Shown here: piece after piece, positions 5,200 through 13,170 of the stretch | How the letters are laid out: every line of letters begins with the position of its first letter | Numbering within the stretch: the stretch's first letter is position 1 | From: a virus | Reading direction: 5' to 3' (one strand) | UHGV virus genome: UHGV-0200089 | DNA: 17,850 nucleotides | Notes under the pieces: generated by a model | Seen by the model: only the letters and a program-made list of their open reading frames with translations | Databases searched by the model: none | Told to the model about the DNA's origin: nothing | Position numbers and translations under genes: made by a program

Positions 5200-5218
5200 G
5201 TGCTTTCCCCGCCTCGCC
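5200..5218. other. cos: P2-type cos site (19-nt cohesive-end sequence)
   Basis: GTGCTTTCCCCGCCTCGCC is the reverse complement of GGCGAGGCGGGGAAAGCAC, the P2 cohesive end as recalled. It lies in a C-rich tract directly after Q, where cos sits in P2. Confidence 0.65.
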
Positions 5219-5459
5219 CGCCCGCTTCATGGGGAGGTTTTAATGCAAACGCATCAGGAAGGGCAGACCTAGTCACATGTAGAATACGATAGCAATAAAA
5301 AAGTCTAATTAGAATGCAAATTGATGCAACTCTATGCCCTCCAAGAACTCCAAACCTGAAAGATTTATGTAAAACATAGTGTTCGTTTCACCAAAATACA
5401 TATAAACTACATTAAAATAGAAATTTGTCTCACCTATAAGCCATTTAGACAACAGATTA

Positions 5460-6623
5460 ATGAGGTTTGTATCACAAATGACCACAAACGAGATACTTTC
5501 GCAGCTTATCAGTCTTGGACTCAAAGGGGATAAAGTTGCTTTTGTTCGGCAGGCTTCGAAACTCGCGCGTTCCTATGATTCTATGGGGCTGCCTGAGCTT
5601 GCTTCAGCCATTAGAGGTAGTATTCAAGATAAAAACACGTTTAACTTGCAGAAAGTATCACGCAGTACATCACCTATTTTTGAACGTCTTGATACATTAC
5701 CTGTAGATAAAGAAACTAAATTTGATTTAGCAGACGTAACTCAACCGTCTTCTGAAATTCAACTCCCATTGTTGAAAGATAGCACTCTGAAAAAAATTAA
5801 AGAATTTTTGACTTTCACTGAACGAGCTAAAGAATTAAAGGATGCCGGTCTTGGCGTGACATCCTCTATGATTTTATATGGGCCACCAGGTTGTGGTAAA
5901 ACCTTGACATCAAAATATATTGCATCCTGTCTAAATTTACCGCTTCTTACTGCAAGATGTGACTCCTTAGTCTCATCATATCTGGGGTCTACTTCTAAAA
6001 ATATCAGGCAGCTATTTGAGTATGCAAGTAAAGCACCATGTGTTTTATTTCTAGATGAACTAGATTCTCTAGCAAAGGCTAGAGATGATCAGCATGAGTT
6101 AGGTGAACTGAAGAGGGTGGTGGTTTCTTTATTGCAAAATATTGACAATCTACCTGAAGAAACAATATTGATTGCTGCAAGTAATCATGAAAATCTTCTA
6201 GATAGCGCAGTTTGGAGGCGCTTTGAGTATAGAATATCTATTGGATTGCCTGATTTTGAAGTCAGAAAACAACTATTTGAACAATATTCAAACATAAAAG
6301 CTACATATGACGATTTTGTTGATGACCTTGCGGAAATATCATCAGGGCTAAACTGCTCATTTATAGAACAATGCTGCTTAAGATCTGAGCGACATGCTCT
6401 GGTTTACAATAATAAACAAATCGATACCCGATTTTTAGTCGAGGCTATCTTAGAAGCGAAGGGAGTTACATTTGATGAAGAAGATAATTTACTTATAAAG
6501 ATTGTGACCACTCTCAGAGAATACAATCCCAAAAGATTTACAATACGAAAGATAGCAAAAATACTAGGGCTTTCAAATGCTAAAGTGTCAAGGCTAACTA
6601 AGAACTATAGAGAGATATTATGA
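5460..6623 (+). CDS. AAA+ ATPase with C-terminal HTH-like segment (387 aa); cargo gene 1 of an IetAS-like pair
   Basis: Walker A 'GPPGCGKT', Walker B 'VLFLDELD', and a sensor/arginine region 'SNHENLLDSAVWRRFEYRISIGLPD'. The C-terminal 'FTIRKIAKILGLSNAKVSRLTKNY' looks like a helix-turn-helix. The stop overlaps the next gene's start as ATGA. Start could instead be ATG 5478, which has a GAGG ~12 nt upstream. Confidence 0.85.
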   Translation: MRFVSQMTTNEILSQLISLGLKGDKVAFVRQASKLARSYDSMGLPELASAIRGSIQDKNTFNLQKVSRSTSPIFERLDTLPVDKETKFDLADVTQPSSEIQLPLLKDSTLKKIKEFLTFTERAKELKDAGLGVTSSMILYGPPGCGKTLTSKYIASCLNLPLLTARCDSLVSSYLGSTSKNIRQLFEYASKAPCVLFLDELDSLAKARDDQHELGELKRVVVSLLQNIDNLPEETILIAASNHENLLDSAVWRRFEYRISIGLPDFEVRKQLFEQYSNIKATYDDFVDDLAEISSGLNCSFIEQCCLRSERHALVYNNKQIDTRFLVEAILEAKGVTFDEEDNLLIKIVTTLREYNPKRFTIRKIAKILGLSNAKVSRLTKNYREIL

Positions 6624-8884
6624 GTAACAAAGAAAGACCAATAAAAATAATTGAGGCGACACCTCAAGATTTTACTGAAAAAACATATAATTTCGGAAAG
6701 AAACAACCTATCCGAACAGTAACAACTAGTCTAAAAAATAGACTCAAACAAGAAGTCGATGACGTTAAAAATTTTTTCCAGAGCTCATTTAAAAAATGGC
6801 CCAATATACCGGCGGTGGCTAGAGTTACTCTTCATGAAAAAGCTCTTGCTAAGTCACATCGCCCATCAAGCCTATTAGGTGATAATACATGTCCCGTAAT
6901 AGGCAGTGATAATTTTGGAGAATTACTTATAAGTGTTACTGAAAAAGGGTTAGCACAACTTCGCAAAAAAATTGAAAATAGCACTAATTCTCATAATGGG
7001 ACAGTACATATTGCTGTAATTGAAAAGATCGAACCTTTTAGTCTTAACCATGATGTTATAGATAAAAATAAATCAGATAGTTTTCTTCTGAAACTCTTTG
7101 ACCATAAAGATAGAACAACTAACCGCAGTATCGACAAAGAATTAATGGAATTTGCAGATGAACTAGGAATACAAAAACCCAAAAAGTATGATATCAGTTC
7201 AGATTTGAGTATATATGAAGTAAAAGGGAATGATAACATCGCCCAACTGGCAAGTTTTATTGGCATACGAAAATTAGAACCTATGCCAACATTTGGTCTT
7301 ACTCATACAGTATCGCAATATATTCCTGCTGAAACTCTAGACCTAGATGATTTTCCCTTACCTCAAGAGGATAAACATTATCCACTACTCGGAATTATAG
7401 ATAGCGGAGTCGATCCCAATAACAACATACTTAGGCCATGGATTTGGGATAGTTTAGATTTAGTAAAAGGAGAACACGACTATTCTCATGGGAACATGGT
7501 TGCAAGTTTAGCAATTAATGGAAGATGGTTGAATAACTATGCTGGTTTTCCTCAATGCCAAGCTGAAATTGTTGATGTTGCAGCCTTTCCCAAAGATGGT
7601 ACGCTCAAATTGCCACAATTAATGAAAGCTATCCGAGAGGCTGTGACCACCTATCCAGAAGTACGTGTATGGAATCTGTCATTAGGTTGTCAATCCCCAT
7701 GTTCTGAAGACAGCTTCTCTGAATTGGGGCATTTTTTAAATGCACTTCATGATGAGCATGATTGTCTTTTCGTCGTAGCATCCGGCAACTACATTTATGA
7801 TCCTCAACGAACCTGGCCTCCTCAAGAATTAGGTGGGCATGACAGAATATCAGCCCCCGCAGATTCTGTTCGTTCATTAACTGTTGGCTCAGTTGCCCAT
7901 TTAGAATCGTCTGACTCTGTGGTCAAAAGATTTGAACCTTCATCTTTTTCTAGAAGAGGTCCCGGCCCAGCCTTTATACCCAAACCAGAGATAAATCACT
8001 TTGGAGGTAATTGTGACAGTAAATTAAACTGTGAACATACCGGAATCATAGCTATTGGCGAGGACAATGCTCTTTGCGAAAGTATTGGCACAAGTTTATC
8101 AGCACCGTTAATCTCAAGTTTAGCGGCATCACTGTGGCATGAACTAGATGTTAATGGTTCTATTTCACCATCGCCTGAACGTATCAAGGCACTATTAATT
8201 CATTCTGCGTTAAAAAACTCACCAGCCAAAACGGAGCATTATGCGTTTAATTATCAAGGATTTGGACGCCCAAGCGATCATATAAATGATATTATTGGTT
8301 GCAATAAAAATGAGATTACATTTCTATTTGAAATAGATACCCGAGAAGGTATTGAATTCAGTAGAACGCCATTTGTAATACCACAGTCATTACGTACTGA
8401 GGATGGAAAATTCACAGGTGAAATTATTATGACACTCGTTTATTCTCCACCGCTTGATTATGACTACCCATCTGAATATTGCCGTTCTAATGTGGATGTG
8501 TCATTCGGGACTTACACTTATGATCCAGTTAACGCTAAATGGATACATAGCGGAAAAATTCCACAAATAAAAGAAAAGAGTGAATTATTTGAAAAGGTAC
8601 TGATAGAAAATGGCTTCAAATGGTCTCCAGTCAAAGTTTATAGAAAACAATTTCCGCAAGGTATAAATGGGGAGCAATGGAGACTTAAACTTGATGTTCA
8701 GAGACGAGCAGAGCAAGAGCCTCTATCTTCACCTCAACGTGCTGTATTGGCTATTACGTTAAGATCTCTTGCCAATTCTACTACAGTCTACAACGAAGCC
8801 GAGGTTGAAATAAATAATCTTGGTTGGAAAGAAACTGATATTGTTGTTCGTGAACAACCAAAAATCAGGATTCGTCAAAAATAA
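6620..8884 (+). CDS. Subtilisin-like (S8) serine peptidase with N- and C-terminal extra domains (754 aa); cargo gene 2
   Basis: S8 catalytic motifs in canonical order: Asp 'LLGIIDSGVD', His 'DYSHGNMVASLA', oxyanion Asn 'FVVASGNY', Ser 'GTSLSAPLISS'. AT-rich coding sequence; translationally coupled to the ATPase. Confidence 0.85.
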   Translation: MSNKERPIKIIEATPQDFTEKTYNFGKKQPIRTVTTSLKNRLKQEVDDVKNFFQSSFKKWPNIPAVARVTLHEKALAKSHRPSSLLGDNTCPVIGSDNFGELLISVTEKGLAQLRKKIENSTNSHNGTVHIAVIEKIEPFSLNHDVIDKNKSDSFLLKLFDHKDRTTNRSIDKELMEFADELGIQKPKKYDISSDLSIYEVKGNDNIAQLASFIGIRKLEPMPTFGLTHTVSQYIPAETLDLDDFPLPQEDKHYPLLGIIDSGVDPNNNILRPWIWDSLDLVKGEHDYSHGNMVASLAINGRWLNNYAGFPQCQAEIVDVAAFPKDGTLKLPQLMKAIREAVTTYPEVRVWNLSLGCQSPCSEDSFSELGHFLNALHDEHDCLFVVASGNYIYDPQRTWPPQELGGHDRISAPADSVRSLTVGSVAHLESSDSVVKRFEPSSFSRRGPGPAFIPKPEINHFGGNCDSKLNCEHTGIIAIGEDNALCESIGTSLSAPLISSLAASLWHELDVNGSISPSPERIKALLIHSALKNSPAKTEHYAFNYQGFGRPSDHINDIIGCNKNEITFLFEIDTREGIEFSRTPFVIPQSLRTEDGKFTGEIIMTLVYSPPLDYDYPSEYCRSNVDVSFGTYTYDPVNAKWIHSGKIPQIKEKSELFEKVLIENGFKWSPVKVYRKQFPQGINGEQWRLKLDVQRRAEQEPLSSPQRAVLAITLRSLANSTTVYNEAEVEINNLGWKETDIVVREQPKIRIRQK

Positions 8885-8889
8885 GCATT

Positions 8890-8914
8890 ATGGTCACCTT
8901 TTATAGGTGACCAT
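8890..8914. terminator. Perfect 9-bp palindromic hairpin between the two convergent cargo operons
   Basis: ATGGTCACC ttttata GGTGACCAT, located between the S8 stop (8884) and the membrane-protein stop (8918). U-tracts are weak on both sides, so termination efficiency is uncertain. Confidence 0.5.
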
Positions 8915-8917
8915 TTA

Positions 8918-9679
8918 CTACACCTTATTATTTTCAACTATTTTATGAATATCCATATCAAACCAAGAAACTTGCGAAATTTCTTTTAGTGGAAAGATGA
9001 TACTAGTATCAGCATCCTCAAGCTCTCTATATTCATTCACCAAGATTACTTTCAATGAATCCTTATCTCTATACCCAGAGATAATAGGATAGATTGAAAC
9101 ATACTGGTTAGGTCCTTCTTTCTCGTTAGGCTCACCTAATGCGTTAACAATTCCTACATATGTCTTTTTATTTTGCAACGTAATAAGTATTGAACGTCTA
9201 TCAACTAACGAATCAAAAAATATTTCATCCATTGGATTATCATTAATAAGCTCTTGCCTCATCCTTAGCATGACAAGATTCTCATAATCAATATTGGCAG
9301 CCTTTACCCCTTGGATATAATTTATAATTTTAGCTCTATATATAACCAAATATCTAGCACCGACACTCCATATCCAAGCCAAAAATATCGTTCCACATGA
9401 AAGTAAAATCATCCATCCTATGATTCTTTCAGTACCATTGTCACTAAGTTTGAGATCTAATTGTTCCCGAACCATCGTGACAGGATGGAAGCTCGGACAT
9501 ATCCATTTTATTAAGTAAGCTATAATCAATGTCCATATAAAACACCACAGACCAAAGGCGGCTGACTTCATATATAACAACTGCCCATCATAACGGTGTA
9601 ATCTATAGAAATGATAAGGATGAGTGGTTAATACAATATAACCACTCACAAGTAATGGAATAATTAATAAAGCAAACAT
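8918..9679 (-). CDS. Uncharacterised membrane protein (253 aa), three predicted N-terminal TM helices plus a ~140-aa soluble C-terminal domain; cargo gene
   Basis: Hydrophobic segments FALLIIPLLVSGYIVLTT, AAFGLWCFIWTLIIAYLIKWI and IIGWMILLSCGTIFLAWIWSV. The ATG lies 2 nt after the upstream gene's TAA. AT-rich. No family recognised. Confidence 0.7.
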   Translation of the reverse strand: MFALLIIPLLVSGYIVLTTHPYHFYRLHRYDGQLLYMKSAAFGLWCFIWTLIIAYLIKWICPSFHPVTMVREQLDLKLSDNGTERIIGWMILLSCGTIFLAWIWSVGARYLVIYRAKIINYIQGVKAANIDYENLVMLRMRQELINDNPMDEIFFDSLVDRRSILITLQNKKTYVGIVNALGEPNEKEGPNQYVSIYPIISGYRDKDSLKVILVNEYRELEDADTSIIFPLKEISQVSWFDMDIHKIVENNKV

Positions 9680-9681
9680 TA

Positions 9682-9918
9682 TTAATTCCCTTTAGCCATT
9701 TTTTCTTCTTGCTTTACCTGCTCAGAAACTATTTTTCTTGCTTTAATTTTCATCAATTTTACTGTATCTGAGCTTGCCAAGTCTTCTTTAGACGTGATAA
9801 TCGCGCCTCGACCTACCACCTCAACAGTGTTTGTTCCAGATGCTTCAAGCCTCCTCGCCAGTTCTCTTTCCTTTTCAATAGCAGCTTTACCTATAATACG
9901 TTCAAATATATTCATCAT
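9682..9918 (-). CDS. Uncharacterised small charged protein (78 aa), first gene of the minus-strand cargo operon
   Basis: GGAGG RBS 4 nt upstream of the ATG (complement of 9916-9918). Lys/Glu-rich, predicted helical. Tightly coupled to the downstream membrane-protein gene. Confidence 0.6.
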   Translation of the reverse strand: MMNIFERIIGKAAIEKERELARRLEASGTNTVEVVGRGAIITSKEDLASSDTVKLMKIKARKIVSEQVKQEEKMAKGN

Positions 9919-10037: not shown

Positions 10038-10226
10038 ATCTATCAAAATGGTATTTTGTTAAAAATTCAGCTAACTCTGAGGTTGGTAAAACAGTCCACC
10101 AGATGTATCGCTAAAGCACTTAGAAACCACTATAACCATCCTAAGTGTACCAGTCAGTCTGTTTGTCTAATCGCATCACTATGCTCGTTATTCTATCCCC
10201 CGCCAATCCTGAGCTGGCTGCGTTCT

Positions 10227-10433
10227 CTATCGTCTGCGTGGTGGCGGTGCAGCGCTGGGCTGACCGATATAGTTAAGCCATACGTAATTATCCCGGACTA
10301 TTTCGGCACACCCGACCAGCTCATCGGGCGTCAGATTTTCGTTGACCATAATCTGCTGTAGACGGTGAACAATGGCCATCAGCTTGATATTTTTAGTTTT
10401 ATGCTGCGGTATCTCGCCTGGTATTCTGTGCAT
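10227..10433 (-). CDS. Hypothetical small protein (68 aa) downstream of the ASCH-like gene
   Basis: ATG at 10433-10431 overlaps the upstream TAA as TAATG; the translation ...ENLTPDELVGCAEIVRDNYVWLNYIGQ... looks protein-like. It competes with an overlapping plus-strand ORF at 10056-10361. Confidence 0.3.
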   Translation of the reverse strand: MHRIPGEIPQHKTKNIKLMAIVHRLQQIMVNENLTPDELVGCAEIVRDNYVWLNYIGQPSAAPPPRRR

Positions 10434-10888
10434 TATCCAAGCCACCCGTTTTGCTGTGCACGCTCCACCTGTTCATCTGAATAGTTCCATATCCCATCCG
10501 CACCAACCACTGCCCCGCCAGACATCCCCGTCTCTGGTTCATACACAACAGCAAGGCCGAGCTGATGCATAATTTCATGATTAATTCTGAATACCAGACC
10601 ACGCTCACTAAGTTCTTTCCAGTTCACAAACTCATATGCGCCTGTATTAAGCAGCTCAATACTTAGCAAGACATAATCTTCCAGCCAGTCTGACAAGTCA
10701 GTAACATCTGTTATCCGGGCTTCAACCTTTCGCCCCGTATACACACCCTGCACCCATTCATGCAAAATCAACGTGTCCCCGCGCTCATAATTACGGTCAT
10801 TTTTCCGAAACTCTGCGCGTTTCTTTCCTTCCAGCACAAGGTCAAAATATTTTGCGTGCAGCTTTACCTCGTGAATTTTTGCCATCAT
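10433..10888 (-). CDS. ASCH/PUA-like domain protein (151 aa) in the P2 'orf91' position
   Basis: From the first ATG (10888-10886), which overlaps the gene A stop as ATGA: MMAKIHEVKLHAKYFDLVLEGKKRAEFRKNDRNYERGDTLILHEW... resembles the ASCH/DUF3850 fold signature. The C-terminal region contains 'INHEIMHQLG' (an HExxH). The track's longer GTG-initiated version is rejected. Confidence 0.72.
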   Translation of the reverse strand: MMAKIHEVKLHAKYFDLVLEGKKRAEFRKNDRNYERGDTLILHEWVQGVYTGRKVEARITDVTDLSDWLEDYVLLSIELLNTGAYEFVNWKELSERGLVFRINHEIMHQLGLAVVYEPETGMSGGAVVGADGIWNYSDEQVERAQQNGWLG

Positions 10889-13170
10889 TTCCACTCCATT
10901 ACTGTTGAGAATCCCGGCCACTCATCAGCGACCGGATACGTGAATTTTTTCCCGTCATAATTTACGGTCGCGCCACGCGCCAGCGCCTCAAGCTCCCATC
11001 GCTGCGGCCTGATACCGTTCTGAGCAAGGTCAACGCGGATACGGGTAATTTGCATTCTTTCCGACCGGGTCAGTCTGGCCGATGGTGCAATTTCATGTGG
11101 TTTTAACGGGCTTCCGTTTCTTTGCTGACGGTTTGGCGTTCTCAGGTCGTGTTTTAATGCACCCCTGAGCGCCCTCACGACCTCCGGTTCATTCCATTCA
11201 ATAACACCGTCATCAACCAGATTAAGCACTGCTGCGGCGTGCTCAGAAGGTGTGGGAGCCGGTAACGAAGTATCACCACCGGTGAGCTTTCCACAGTTAT
11301 TGACAGGACTCCGAGGCGCGGCGATGCCGCTTTTTAAAGTCAAAGGCTCAACGACCGGAACTTTCGGCACAATGCGCCAGTCCGTCGTTCTGGTGATATG
11401 AATATGACGCGCGCCGAGATGCGGCGCGTAAATGCCGACCACTCTCTCGACTTCTTCCTCGTATTCGTTAACGTCATCCGACGGGCTACGGGCGACCCTG
11501 ACAGTCTGACAATCGCGCGGGACATTTGCCCCGCCCTGCGCGCTGATATACAACGCAAAATCGCCACTGTCTGCGGCGGCGCGTGCAGCCTCCACGCGTT
11601 CGTCAAATTCATCAGCAATGCTGACGCCGCGAGGCAATTTACGTAGCTCACGGTAAGCTCCCATTGTCGGCAGGCCAACCGTTTTAAATTGCGGGATGCG
11701 CCACGTTGACGCCCATGCGGTAACAGCCGCCGCAGTATCTTTCAGCGGTCTGCCGGTATCGTTATCGAGCTGACCATCCAGTGCATAGCCGTCGATATTT
11801 TTTGAAATGTATTTCGCGATATATCCCGCAGCACCGCCCCGGTTAAGGTGTTTTGCCTGAAAACGGTTTCGCGCGGCTCCTCTTTCGTCGCCATCCTCTT
11901 TGAGCGCATAGCGGCGCATGATTTCGATAATCTGGTTACGCTGGCGTGGATTACAAAAAAGCATCATATGCCAGTGCGGCGTTCCGTCGTGGTGTGGCTC
12001 GACGACTCGCAAACCGTAGACCTGTAAATCATTATCCTTGAATGCCGTGCGCATCAGGCTCCAGATACGGCAGAGATAACGCTGCGCATCCTTTGGATTA
12101 AATGCCTCATCATTCCAGCCGTGATTAAGCTGGACGGTTTTATTTTCGCCTTTTCCAACCTGACGTGTCGGGTGATACTTTGACGGCGCGGTCAGCGTGA
12201 TAAACATCCCCACATCACCCTCTGAGGCGGCGTAACGCTCAATACCGGCAATGGTGTTCATCAGCTCCATCCGGCGAATTTCAGGATTAGAAATACTGCC
12301 CATCACCTTACTGATAAGGTCGATGCGCTCGCCGGTTTCCCTGTTTTCAAGGTCACACGATTTAAGAAATTCCAGATTTGCCTGGCGGCGCGCACGCACA
12401 TCACGAATGGCATGTTTACTGGCATAAGGTGAACGGTCTTTATTGACCTCCCCGACAGCTATCAGTAACGCCTCATGCCAGCGCATACGCTGGCCTTTAA
12501 GCTGATGAGTCCACCACTCATCGTTAAACAGACGGGCAATGGCAGAATATGCCTGCCTCGTGGTCATCTGCCCTTTACGGTATTTGTTCCAGTAGAGAGG
12601 GGAAATATTGAAAGCACGTGCAGCGCCAGCAACATGACCATAGAGGTGAGCCTGCGCCTCATCCGTAAACAGCGATTCTTTTTCGCCATGTGCATCCACC
12701 CAGGCATCGCTGAGTTCCTCATACATCATGAAAAGCTGCGATGAGATACGGGCAGCAAACTTTTTCAGCTCCTTGTCATTCATTCCCGGCAGGCGCGCAT
12801 AGTGGTCACGCTCTGCCAGAAACAGTAACGACGCGTCGGTGTTCATTTCATGGCGCTGATTCACACGCTCAATGCGCGGCCATAAACGACGCTGAAAAGT
12901 GGATGTGAGGAAATAAAACCCGTGCACCGGGCTTTTATTGCGCCGGATGTAGTCATAGCGTGAAGTAAACAGCGAGCGCAAAAAGTAAGGCAGGCGGTTA
13001 ATCGTGGATAAAACACCTTGCACCTGACGCATCTCGTCACGTGTAAGAGGTCTTTCGCGCCCGACAGCCTCGCGTGGCGCGTTCCATGCATAAGCACCGG
13101 TAAACGCCTTACCGGTGCCTGCGGCAAATGCTGACGGAGGGACAAAACGCCCGGAGGCTTTAACGGCCAT
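10885..13170 (-). CDS. A: P2 gpA-like rolling-circle replication initiation endonuclease (761 aa)
   Basis: From ATG 13170-13168 the protein begins MAVKASGRFVPPSAFAAGTGK... and carries the tyrosine motif 'YIAKYISKNIDGY'. Length and sequence match P2 A as recalled. The track's start at 13212 is a TTG extension. Confidence 0.92.
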   Translation of the reverse strand: MAVKASGRFVPPSAFAAGTGKAFTGAYAWNAPREAVGRERPLTRDEMRQVQGVLSTINRLPYFLRSLFTSRYDYIRRNKSPVHGFYFLTSTFQRRLWPRIERVNQRHEMNTDASLLFLAERDHYARLPGMNDKELKKFAARISSQLFMMYEELSDAWVDAHGEKESLFTDEAQAHLYGHVAGAARAFNISPLYWNKYRKGQMTTRQAYSAIARLFNDEWWTHQLKGQRMRWHEALLIAVGEVNKDRSPYASKHAIRDVRARRQANLEFLKSCDLENRETGERIDLISKVMGSISNPEIRRMELMNTIAGIERYAASEGDVGMFITLTAPSKYHPTRQVGKGENKTVQLNHGWNDEAFNPKDAQRYLCRIWSLMRTAFKDNDLQVYGLRVVEPHHDGTPHWHMMLFCNPRQRNQIIEIMRRYALKEDGDERGAARNRFQAKHLNRGGAAGYIAKYISKNIDGYALDGQLDNDTGRPLKDTAAAVTAWASTWRIPQFKTVGLPTMGAYRELRKLPRGVSIADEFDERVEAARAAADSGDFALYISAQGGANVPRDCQTVRVARSPSDDVNEYEEEVERVVGIYAPHLGARHIHITRTTDWRIVPKVPVVEPLTLKSGIAAPRSPVNNCGKLTGGDTSLPAPTPSEHAAAVLNLVDDGVIEWNEPEVVRALRGALKHDLRTPNRQQRNGSPLKPHEIAPSARLTRSERMQITRIRVDLAQNGIRPQRWELEALARGATVNYDGKKFTYPVADEWPGFSTVMEWK

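Follow-up and report, generated by a model that had tools for sequence, protein, structure and literature searches.

The 17,850-nucleotide virus genome UHGV-0200089 (hereafter the window, meaning this whole stretch of DNA) represents a P2-like (Peduovirus) prophage of E. coli, and positions 10,227 to 10,888 of its minus strand hold the two genes that close the early replication operon, both translationally coupled. The first (gene 1, 10433..10888) is a full-length homologue of P2 Orf91 in which an ASCH/DUF3850 domain is joined to a DUF7415 domain, as determined from Pfam, PHROG, an AlphaFold2 model and the ratio of nonsynonymous to synonymous differences (pN/pS); the second (gene 2, 10227..10433) encodes a protein of 68 residues. 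The pair is located on the backbone (gpA) side of the gpA-gpQ defence hotspot, the cargo of which is IetAS in this prophage. Comparison with related phages shows that both genes are dispensable, being neither essential replication genes nor swapped cargo. A preliminary description, made from the sequence alone, had raised the possibility that they assist replication or belong to the cargo; the former is in keeping with dispensable genes of the early operon, while the latter is contradicted by their backbone location. The identity and anatomy of the gene pair are near certain. The complete explanation, which adds an accessory nucleobase or nucleotide role, is given an even chance of being correct, and the specific nucleobase or nucleotide mechanism that our analysis points to for Orf91 is put forward tentatively.

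Genomic context of the gene pair

The window is reversed in orientation relative to the P2 map. By blastn, window positions 14927-10665 matched P2 (L085, 1278-5540) at 97% DNA identity from cox to residue 75 of Orf91, placing gene 1 in the P2 orf91 slot as previously proposed. The adjoining gpA replication initiator/nickase (10885..13170, minus strand) was assigned from its translation and from 97% DNA identity to P2 A, with RefSeq relatives named 'replication endonuclease'. The 3' end of gpA reads ATG GAG TGG AAA TGA with the stop codon at 10887-10885 (minus strand), and the first ATG of gene 1, at 10888-10886, overlaps this stop in an ATGA coupling. PGAP starts the gene at a further in-frame ATG (10885-10883), which yields 150 residues, versus 151 from the first ATG. 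The translation, MMAKIHEVKLHAKYFDLVLEGKKRAEFRKNDRNYERGDTLILHEW...INHEIMHQLG..., terminates at 10433 in a TAA whose final base also serves the ATG of gene 2 (10433-10431) in a TAATG overlap, and gene 2 ends at 10227. Both couplings had been described beforehand and were present at these positions. The arrangement of orf91 directly after gene A, with overlapping stop and start, is shared with P2, L-413C, Wphi and P2-like prophages.

Conservation across P2-family genomes, which the preliminary description had proposed as a check, was borne out by the presence of the pair in 403 of 5426 complete E. coli genomes and in many related contigs. RefSeq, Pfam and PHROGs already contain both proteins, without a function assigned to either, so their novelty is low. 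The PGAP labels for the pair are 'DUF3850 domain-containing protein' and 'hypothetical protein', and 100% identical copies of Orf91 are so annotated. Furthermore, the gene list that Rousset et al. 2022 give for the gpA-gpQ locus includes 'DUF3850/ASCH', with no function assigned. In E. coli E302 (L086, NZ_AP022362.1; 8509-10808), gene A is split by the IS21-family element ISEc12 and the adjoining pair is 100% identical to that of the window, indicating a prophage that is defective even though the pair is intact.

The N-terminal ASCH/DUF3850 domain

Residues ~4-80 of gene 1 (10649..10879, minus strand) form a DUF3850-type ASCH domain, a PUA-like beta-barrel, carrying the ASCH octapeptide G21-K-K23-R-A-E26-F-R28. 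The Pfam DUF3850 model matched residues 5-77 (E 6.6e-18, 65.1 bits, cut-off 22.9), the Pfam ASCH model matched at E 5.9e-11 (43.4 bits, cut-off 21.2), and PHROG 1812 matched the protein end to end (E 3.6e-79). Residues 4-79 also matched PDB 3iuw (E 1.4e-13), a structural-genomics DUF3850 protein of Enterococcus faecalis ('activating signal cointegrator') with no known function, which differs from Orf91 in being a stand-alone protein of 83 residues without DUF7415. A first AlphaFold2 model, built on a 19-sequence alignment, gave a predicted local distance difference test score (pLDDT) below 50 for the C-terminal domain and was replaced by a second model from a 92-sequence alignment in which distant DUF7415 proteins were represented; mean pLDDT was then 89, with 91-96 in the C-terminal domain. 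This model shows the ASCH beta-barrel, in which helix alpha1 separates strands 1 and 2, so the earlier ASCH/DUF3850 assignment holds both by sequence (Pfam, 3iuw) and by predicted fold. The octapeptide corresponds to the motif GxKxxExR and lies between helix H12-19 and strand E25-28, i.e. in the alpha1-beta2 region in which the ASCH cavity motif has been placed (PMC6803910). GKKRAEFR was kept in 38 of the 39 Orf91 alleles from the slot survey described below. Across these alleles pN/pS was 0.24 for the N-terminal and 0.38 for the C-terminal domain, showing that both are under purifying selection where the gene is intact.

The DUF7415 domain and the HExxH motif

The C-terminal ~60 residues had been regarded as a tail of the ASCH protein; they proved to be a separate, named Pfam domain, DUF7415 (PF24187; residues ~86-146, 10451..10633, minus strand), with the Pfam match itself covering residues 88-128 (E 3.6e-13, 49.9 bits, cut-off 27). 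In the model this domain is a ~55-residue helix/beta-hairpin/helix module composed of helix 90-95, helix 98-110, a hairpin (112-117/122-128) and helix 138-146. A search with residues 78-151 among 1.84 billion cluster representatives yielded 189 homologues, with an alignment core of iDWNelS-lGLi-RINrEILHPLGLA--RdpeTG-SgGalvs-DG-WeY, and Orf91 has the family core residues N103, E105, H108, G111, L112, A113, G121, S123, D131, G132, W134 and Y136. A Foldseek search of a viral library with the two-domain model recovered stand-alone DUF7415 proteins. No match was obtained in a PDB sequence search with the DUF7415 family profile, and Talin/VBS matches (E 0.4 and 0.09) in the searches with DUF7415 and the small protein were noise. 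Giant repeat proteins (P0161, P0060, P0096) were rejected as functional homologues of DUF7415, the likeness being a local one confined to the beta-hairpin GxYGSxxxxxDGxWxY.

The sequence HEIMH (residues 104-108; 10565..10579, minus strand) was located on helix 98-110 from the translation and DSSP analysis of the model, and had been suggested to be either a metal-binding or peptidase-like site or a chance match. A zincin-like metallopeptidase or zinc site in this region draws some credit from the spacing of H104 and H108, one helical turn apart on the same modelled helix as in zincins, from the conservation of E105 (118/139) and H108 (136/140) in a residue census of 140 non-repeat DUF7415 representatives, and from D131 (122/135), which could in principle serve as a third ligand. 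The first His is not a family feature, however: among 138 members scored at the position of H104, Arg occurs in 54, Lys in 24, Thr in 17, His in 13 and Asn in 12, the full HExxH is found in only 9 of the 140 representatives, and one enterobacterial orthologue has YEVLH at this position. The family motif at the site is [RK]-I-N-x-E-[IV]-[LM]-H-P-x-G-L-A. Compared with Pfam DUF7415 and PHROGs 3954, 2502 and 33705, the window lineage shares the core RIN-E--H-GLA...TG-S-GA...DG-W-Y, with His in place of Arg/Lys before the Glu and Gln in place of Pro after the His, and a spurious HExxH arises from these changes. Structurally, the small helix/hairpin/helix module lacks the zincin arrangement of an active-site helix on a mixed sheet with a third-ligand element, and no metallopeptidase fold was among the matches listed for the whole two-domain model, a query that would push weak hits to the C-terminal domain by itself down the list. 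The HExxH of Orf91 is therefore a chance match, an accident of this lineage, and a peptidase or zinc site is very improbable.

DUF7415 was N-terminal in 88 of the 140 representatives and formed stand-alone proteins of ≤100 residues in 47. Partners recognised among the 83 longer members included dATP/dGTP pyrophosphohydrolase (n=3), DUF3850/ASCH (n=2), thymidylate kinase and an Rv2179c-like 3'-5' exoribonuclease, as well as PGDYG, DUF551 and a ClpX-type zinc finger. All known fusion partners act on nucleotides or nucleic acids. One stand-alone copy in another P2-like phage adjoins Ogr and the portal gene, and a pyrophosphohydrolase-DUF7415 fusion in a Rac-like early operon adjoins RecE/RecT. 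DUF7415 and DUF3850 also occur, separately, in the virulent phages Vibrio nt-1, Morganella MP1, Proteus phiP4-3 and Salmonella SE11. These occurrences identify DUF7415 as a portable module of early proteins in temperate as well as virulent phages. In locus L066, DUF7415 is joined to a different, non-ASCH N-terminus.

Variation in the orf91 slot

Reference P2 encodes a shorter Orf91 (NP_046796.1, 109 residues) with two differences from the window protein in the first 75 residues, after which homology to reference P2 ends (window position 10665, from blastn and the P2 annotation). Beyond residue 75 the P2 protein continues HRILGEIL..., resembling the N-terminus of gene 2 (MHRIPGEI), of which it seems to be a remnant; the convergent tin gene follows directly, and the tin-old cassette replaces the rest. 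This layout indicates that reference P2 has lost both the DUF7415 part of the protein and gene 2 almost entirely. The L-413C orf91 product (150 residues) and RefSeq WP_032144906.1 are the same two-domain protein as in the window, and L-413C keeps the full orf91 with gene 2 reduced to its first ~14 codons. In Wphi a 7-bp indel splits the gene into orf91 (93 residues) and gp92 (64 residues), the latter matching the DUF7415 half at 70% identity; frameshifts also disrupt the copies of several prophages.

To survey the slot, 80 viral contigs were fetched via gene 2. An ungapped, full-length Orf91 was present in 54 (39 alleles, one with a premature stop), two further loci contained frameshifted or fragmentary copies, and ~20 loci were without Orf91 and had other genes between gpA and gene 2. 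These alternatives comprised a DinI-like protein (Pfam, 7e-24), DUF2158 with a 226-residue protein, a very acidic protein of 58 residues, and proteins of 101 and 114 residues; variable-slot loci were L045:3572-3802, L068:375-548, L067:3686-3988, L073:3001-3927 and L077:3656-3997. The DinI-like protein resembles the C-terminal part of phage 186 Tum. The position at which the hotspot begins on its gpA side also shifts among phages, corresponding to 10665 in P2 (the Orf91 domain border), 10392 in L-413C (within gene 2) and ~10214, past gene 2 and the hairpin described below, in most other relatives.

The 68-residue protein

Gene 2 (minus strand) matched PHROG 11386 (E 9e-40). Its pN/pS was 0.17 in frame, whereas the two alternative frames gave 1.08 and 1.86; a stop codon was absent from all 50 distinct alleles, and variable sites were distributed 26/19/52 by codon position. 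Residues 1-50 make up a conserved core, followed by a Pro-rich, length-variable C-terminal tail ending PPRR[RP]. In comparisons with phages whose gpA is from 84% down to 40% identical, the core remained 84-94% identical; gene 2 pS was 0.54-0.77, as diverged as gpA, with pN of 0.03-0.07 versus 0.09-0.42 for gpA. The low pN at a gpA-like pS indicates long-term constraint rather than recent transfer. All 195 homologues were annotated 'hypothetical', all came from Enterobacteriaceae and none had a Pfam domain, and a family-profile sequence search of the PDB matched no solved structure. These patterns show that gene 2 encodes a real protein under very strong purifying selection, and its product is a small, mostly helical, highly constrained early protein that likely acts via a conserved partner.

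The alternative that this reading frame is no gene, only conserved DNA serving as a recombination anchor at the hotspot border, is suggested by its position, since it ends exactly at a conserved junction element just beyond which homology between phages with different cargo stops. Substitutions of a protein-like kind, the stop-free alleles and a pS near saturation at so low a pN all contradict it; as the sole explanation it is refuted. The 68-residue gene may nevertheless have a dual role, as protein and as recombination anchor.

A conserved hairpin at the hotspot border

A 74-nt element with the consensus UAGaaAACGCCGCCAGucgUGAAACUUGUUUUCAGggCUGGCGGGGUUGAACAACGAGCg-aGCGAGGCGUUAG begins at the gene 2 stop codon in almost every related locus, P2-like as well as 186-like, and extends exactly to the start of the cargo; homology between phages with different cargo stops precisely at GGCGTTAG. 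Intact copies of this hairpin were located at L060:4205-4278, L017:4211-4284 and, in phage 186, NC_001317 30339-30412. The 15-pair helix was 97.3% paired and had compensatory changes at 8 pairs, and its covariation was above all 500 shuffles and all slid controls, providing comparative evidence for a selected structure. The intact hairpin folds better as sense RNA (-38.9 kcal/mol, z -4.35) than as antisense (-25 kcal/mol) because of G-U pairs. Rfam returned nothing for the window region or for the intact hairpin.

A covariance model of the element (R1) detected one copy after gene 2 per locus, with relatives scoring 70-104 bits; in the clade with divergent gpA a second, direct copy lies just after the DinI-like gene. 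The window itself has a decayed remnant (10167..10229, minus strand; R1 25.5 bits) that has a 15-nt stem-loop deletion and no longer folds (z +0.7), and P2 and L-413C are without the element. In phage 186 the hairpin follows orf97 and precedes the annotated terminator t95b (24 nt on) and cos. Cargo-free loci show the same order, indicating that cargo was inserted between the hairpin and that terminator. The mechanism of cargo swapping at the P2 hotspot has been left open (PMC13586616). Two other roles for the hairpin were considered and set aside: an intrinsic terminator was not called by the terminator scan and no U-tract follows, and a DNA-level attC-like site is less likely given a fold that favours sense RNA via G-U pairs.

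Proposed role of Orf91 and alternative explanations

According to the proposed explanation, Orf91 would be made early in the lytic cycle together with gpA, and its ASCH cavity would bind, and possibly deacylate or process, a modified nucleobase, a nucleoside or an accessible RNA base. DUF7415 would supply a shared partner- or ligand-binding function of the kind attached to phage nucleotide-pool enzymes. Overall, Orf91 would serve as an accessory factor of nucleotide or nucleic-acid metabolism that aids phage DNA synthesis or host takeover, and not as a protease. The nucleobase/nucleotide reading is based upon the DUF7415 fusion partners and upon a residue analogy to YqfB and EOLA1. E. coli YqfB, with catalytic residues K21/T24/R26/E74, hydrolyses N4-acetylcytidine (ac4C; PMC9599836), and for human EOLA1 (K21/E24/R26) deacetylation of free ac4C as part of nucleotide salvage has been reported (bioRxiv 10.64898/2026.08.01.741249). 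By motif register K23 and R28 of Orf91 align with K21 and R26 of YqfB, and K23/E26/R28 are the same residues as K21/E24/R26 of EOLA1. Two residues before the Arg, Orf91 has Glu (E26), the state of the EOLA1/TRIP4 clade and not the Thr nucleophile of YqfB.

Several observations weigh against this reading. Overall identity between Orf91 and YqfB or EOLA1 is only ~14%, and DUF3850 is a separate Pfam family; neither YqfB E74 nor the conserved Ser/Thr of the TRIP4-like clade could be mapped onto Orf91. Substitution of E26 by Leu in two more distant enterobacterial orthologues weakens a strictly catalytic view. The orientation of the two domains in the model is uncertain (predicted template modelling score, pTM, 0.53). 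The argument from fusion partners draws on 6 or 7 architectures among the 83 longer DUF7415 members, most DUF7415 proteins being without a recognisable partner domain. Literature searches found no paper on the function of DUF3850 or DUF7415 and nothing relevant on 'orf91'.

The principal rival is that Orf91, and perhaps gene 2, is a counter-defence or host-takeover factor, either through an ASCH cavity that shields a modified base or that captures or degrades a nucleotide-derived immune signal, or through inhibition of a host protein by DUF7415. Such a role would suit early, dispensable genes in a variable slot adjoining a defence hotspot (occupied elsewhere by the DinI-like, 58-residue acidic and other proteins), the spread of DUF3850 and DUF7415 over unrelated temperate and virulent phages, and a gene 2 more constrained than gpA, as expected for fit to a conserved host target. 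ParB-CTPase-DUF3850 fusions are likewise enriched in prophages, and an anti-defence role was proposed by the authors who described them. On the other hand, neither domain has been tied to a defined immune pathway, strong sequence conservation is unusual for arms-race genes, and a systematic survey found only anti-restriction-modification and anti-CRISPR genes, these being present in 28 P2 elements (PMC13586616). Neither gene had an NCBIfam or PADLOC match, PADLOC being a library of defence-system rather than anti-defence models. On balance a counter-defence or takeover role is judged rather unlikely.

The ATGA-coupled start in the same operon as A, together with the binding of nucleic acids by ASCH/PUA domains (fold neighbours YTH, EVE and McrB-N), could instead point to a dedicated helper of gpA in rolling-circle replication that binds the origin, the nicked strand or an RNA primer. 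However, P2 replicates with a truncated Orf91, pseudogenised copies are common, in P2-like phages whose gpA is 75-98% identical the gene is absent or has unrelated ones in its place, and DUF3850 and DUF7415 are also found in phages without a gpA-type initiator, making such a helper improbable. A further view, likewise judged rather unlikely, combines genes 1 and 2 and the hairpin of relatives into a two-function border module of the P2 defence hotspot. DUF7415 and the 68-residue protein would act early upon the host, as effectors of counter-defence or takeover; the persistence of the gene 2 core while gpA drifts to 40% identity suggests a fit to an invariant host target. The sense-strand RNA hairpin ending ...GGCGTTAG would define the exact cargo-exchange point and might insulate or stabilise the early transcript.

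Cargo and further features of the window

The hotspot cargo includes IetA, an AAA ATPase (5460-6623, plus strand), and IetS, an S8 subtilase (6620-8884, plus strand), with PADLOC E values of 9e-132 and 1e-273, respectively; the corresponding NCBIfam matches to IteA and IteS fall below equivalog cut-offs. Two minus-strand open reading frames complete the cargo on the gpA side, one of 253 residues with a hydrophobic N-terminus (8918-9679, PHROG 3630) and one of 78 residues (9682-9918, PHROG 37504), neither of which had a Pfam, NCBIfam or PADLOC match. The 253-residue product has the same length as P2 Tin and was rejected as a Tin homologue because no BLASTP similarity was found. Between the convergent ends of IetS and the 253-residue frame is a hairpin with a 10-bp palindrome, ATGGTCACCTATAAAAGGTGACCAT (8890-8914), likely a bidirectional terminator. 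Past the cargo lies cos, followed by the portal gene. At ~5200-5247, 48 bp match the right cohesive end region of P2 (cosR) at 96%, indicating that the window spans a joined cos site, as in a prophage or circular form.

Implications

As found, the pair is ordinary, and with its one unusual attribute, the metalloprotease motif, not upheld, it matters little by itself. What remains of interest is the constrained 68-residue protein, together with the DUF7415 module and the border hairpin. The Orf91 familiar from textbook P2 comes from a truncated gene; ancestrally the protein has two domains. Furthermore, for the much-studied P2 defence hotspot the edge nearest gpA can be located with single-base precision, after the constrained 68-residue gene and the covarying hairpin. 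Finally, the fusion partners of DUF7415 point to nucleotide metabolism, providing an entry point to an uncharacterised family.

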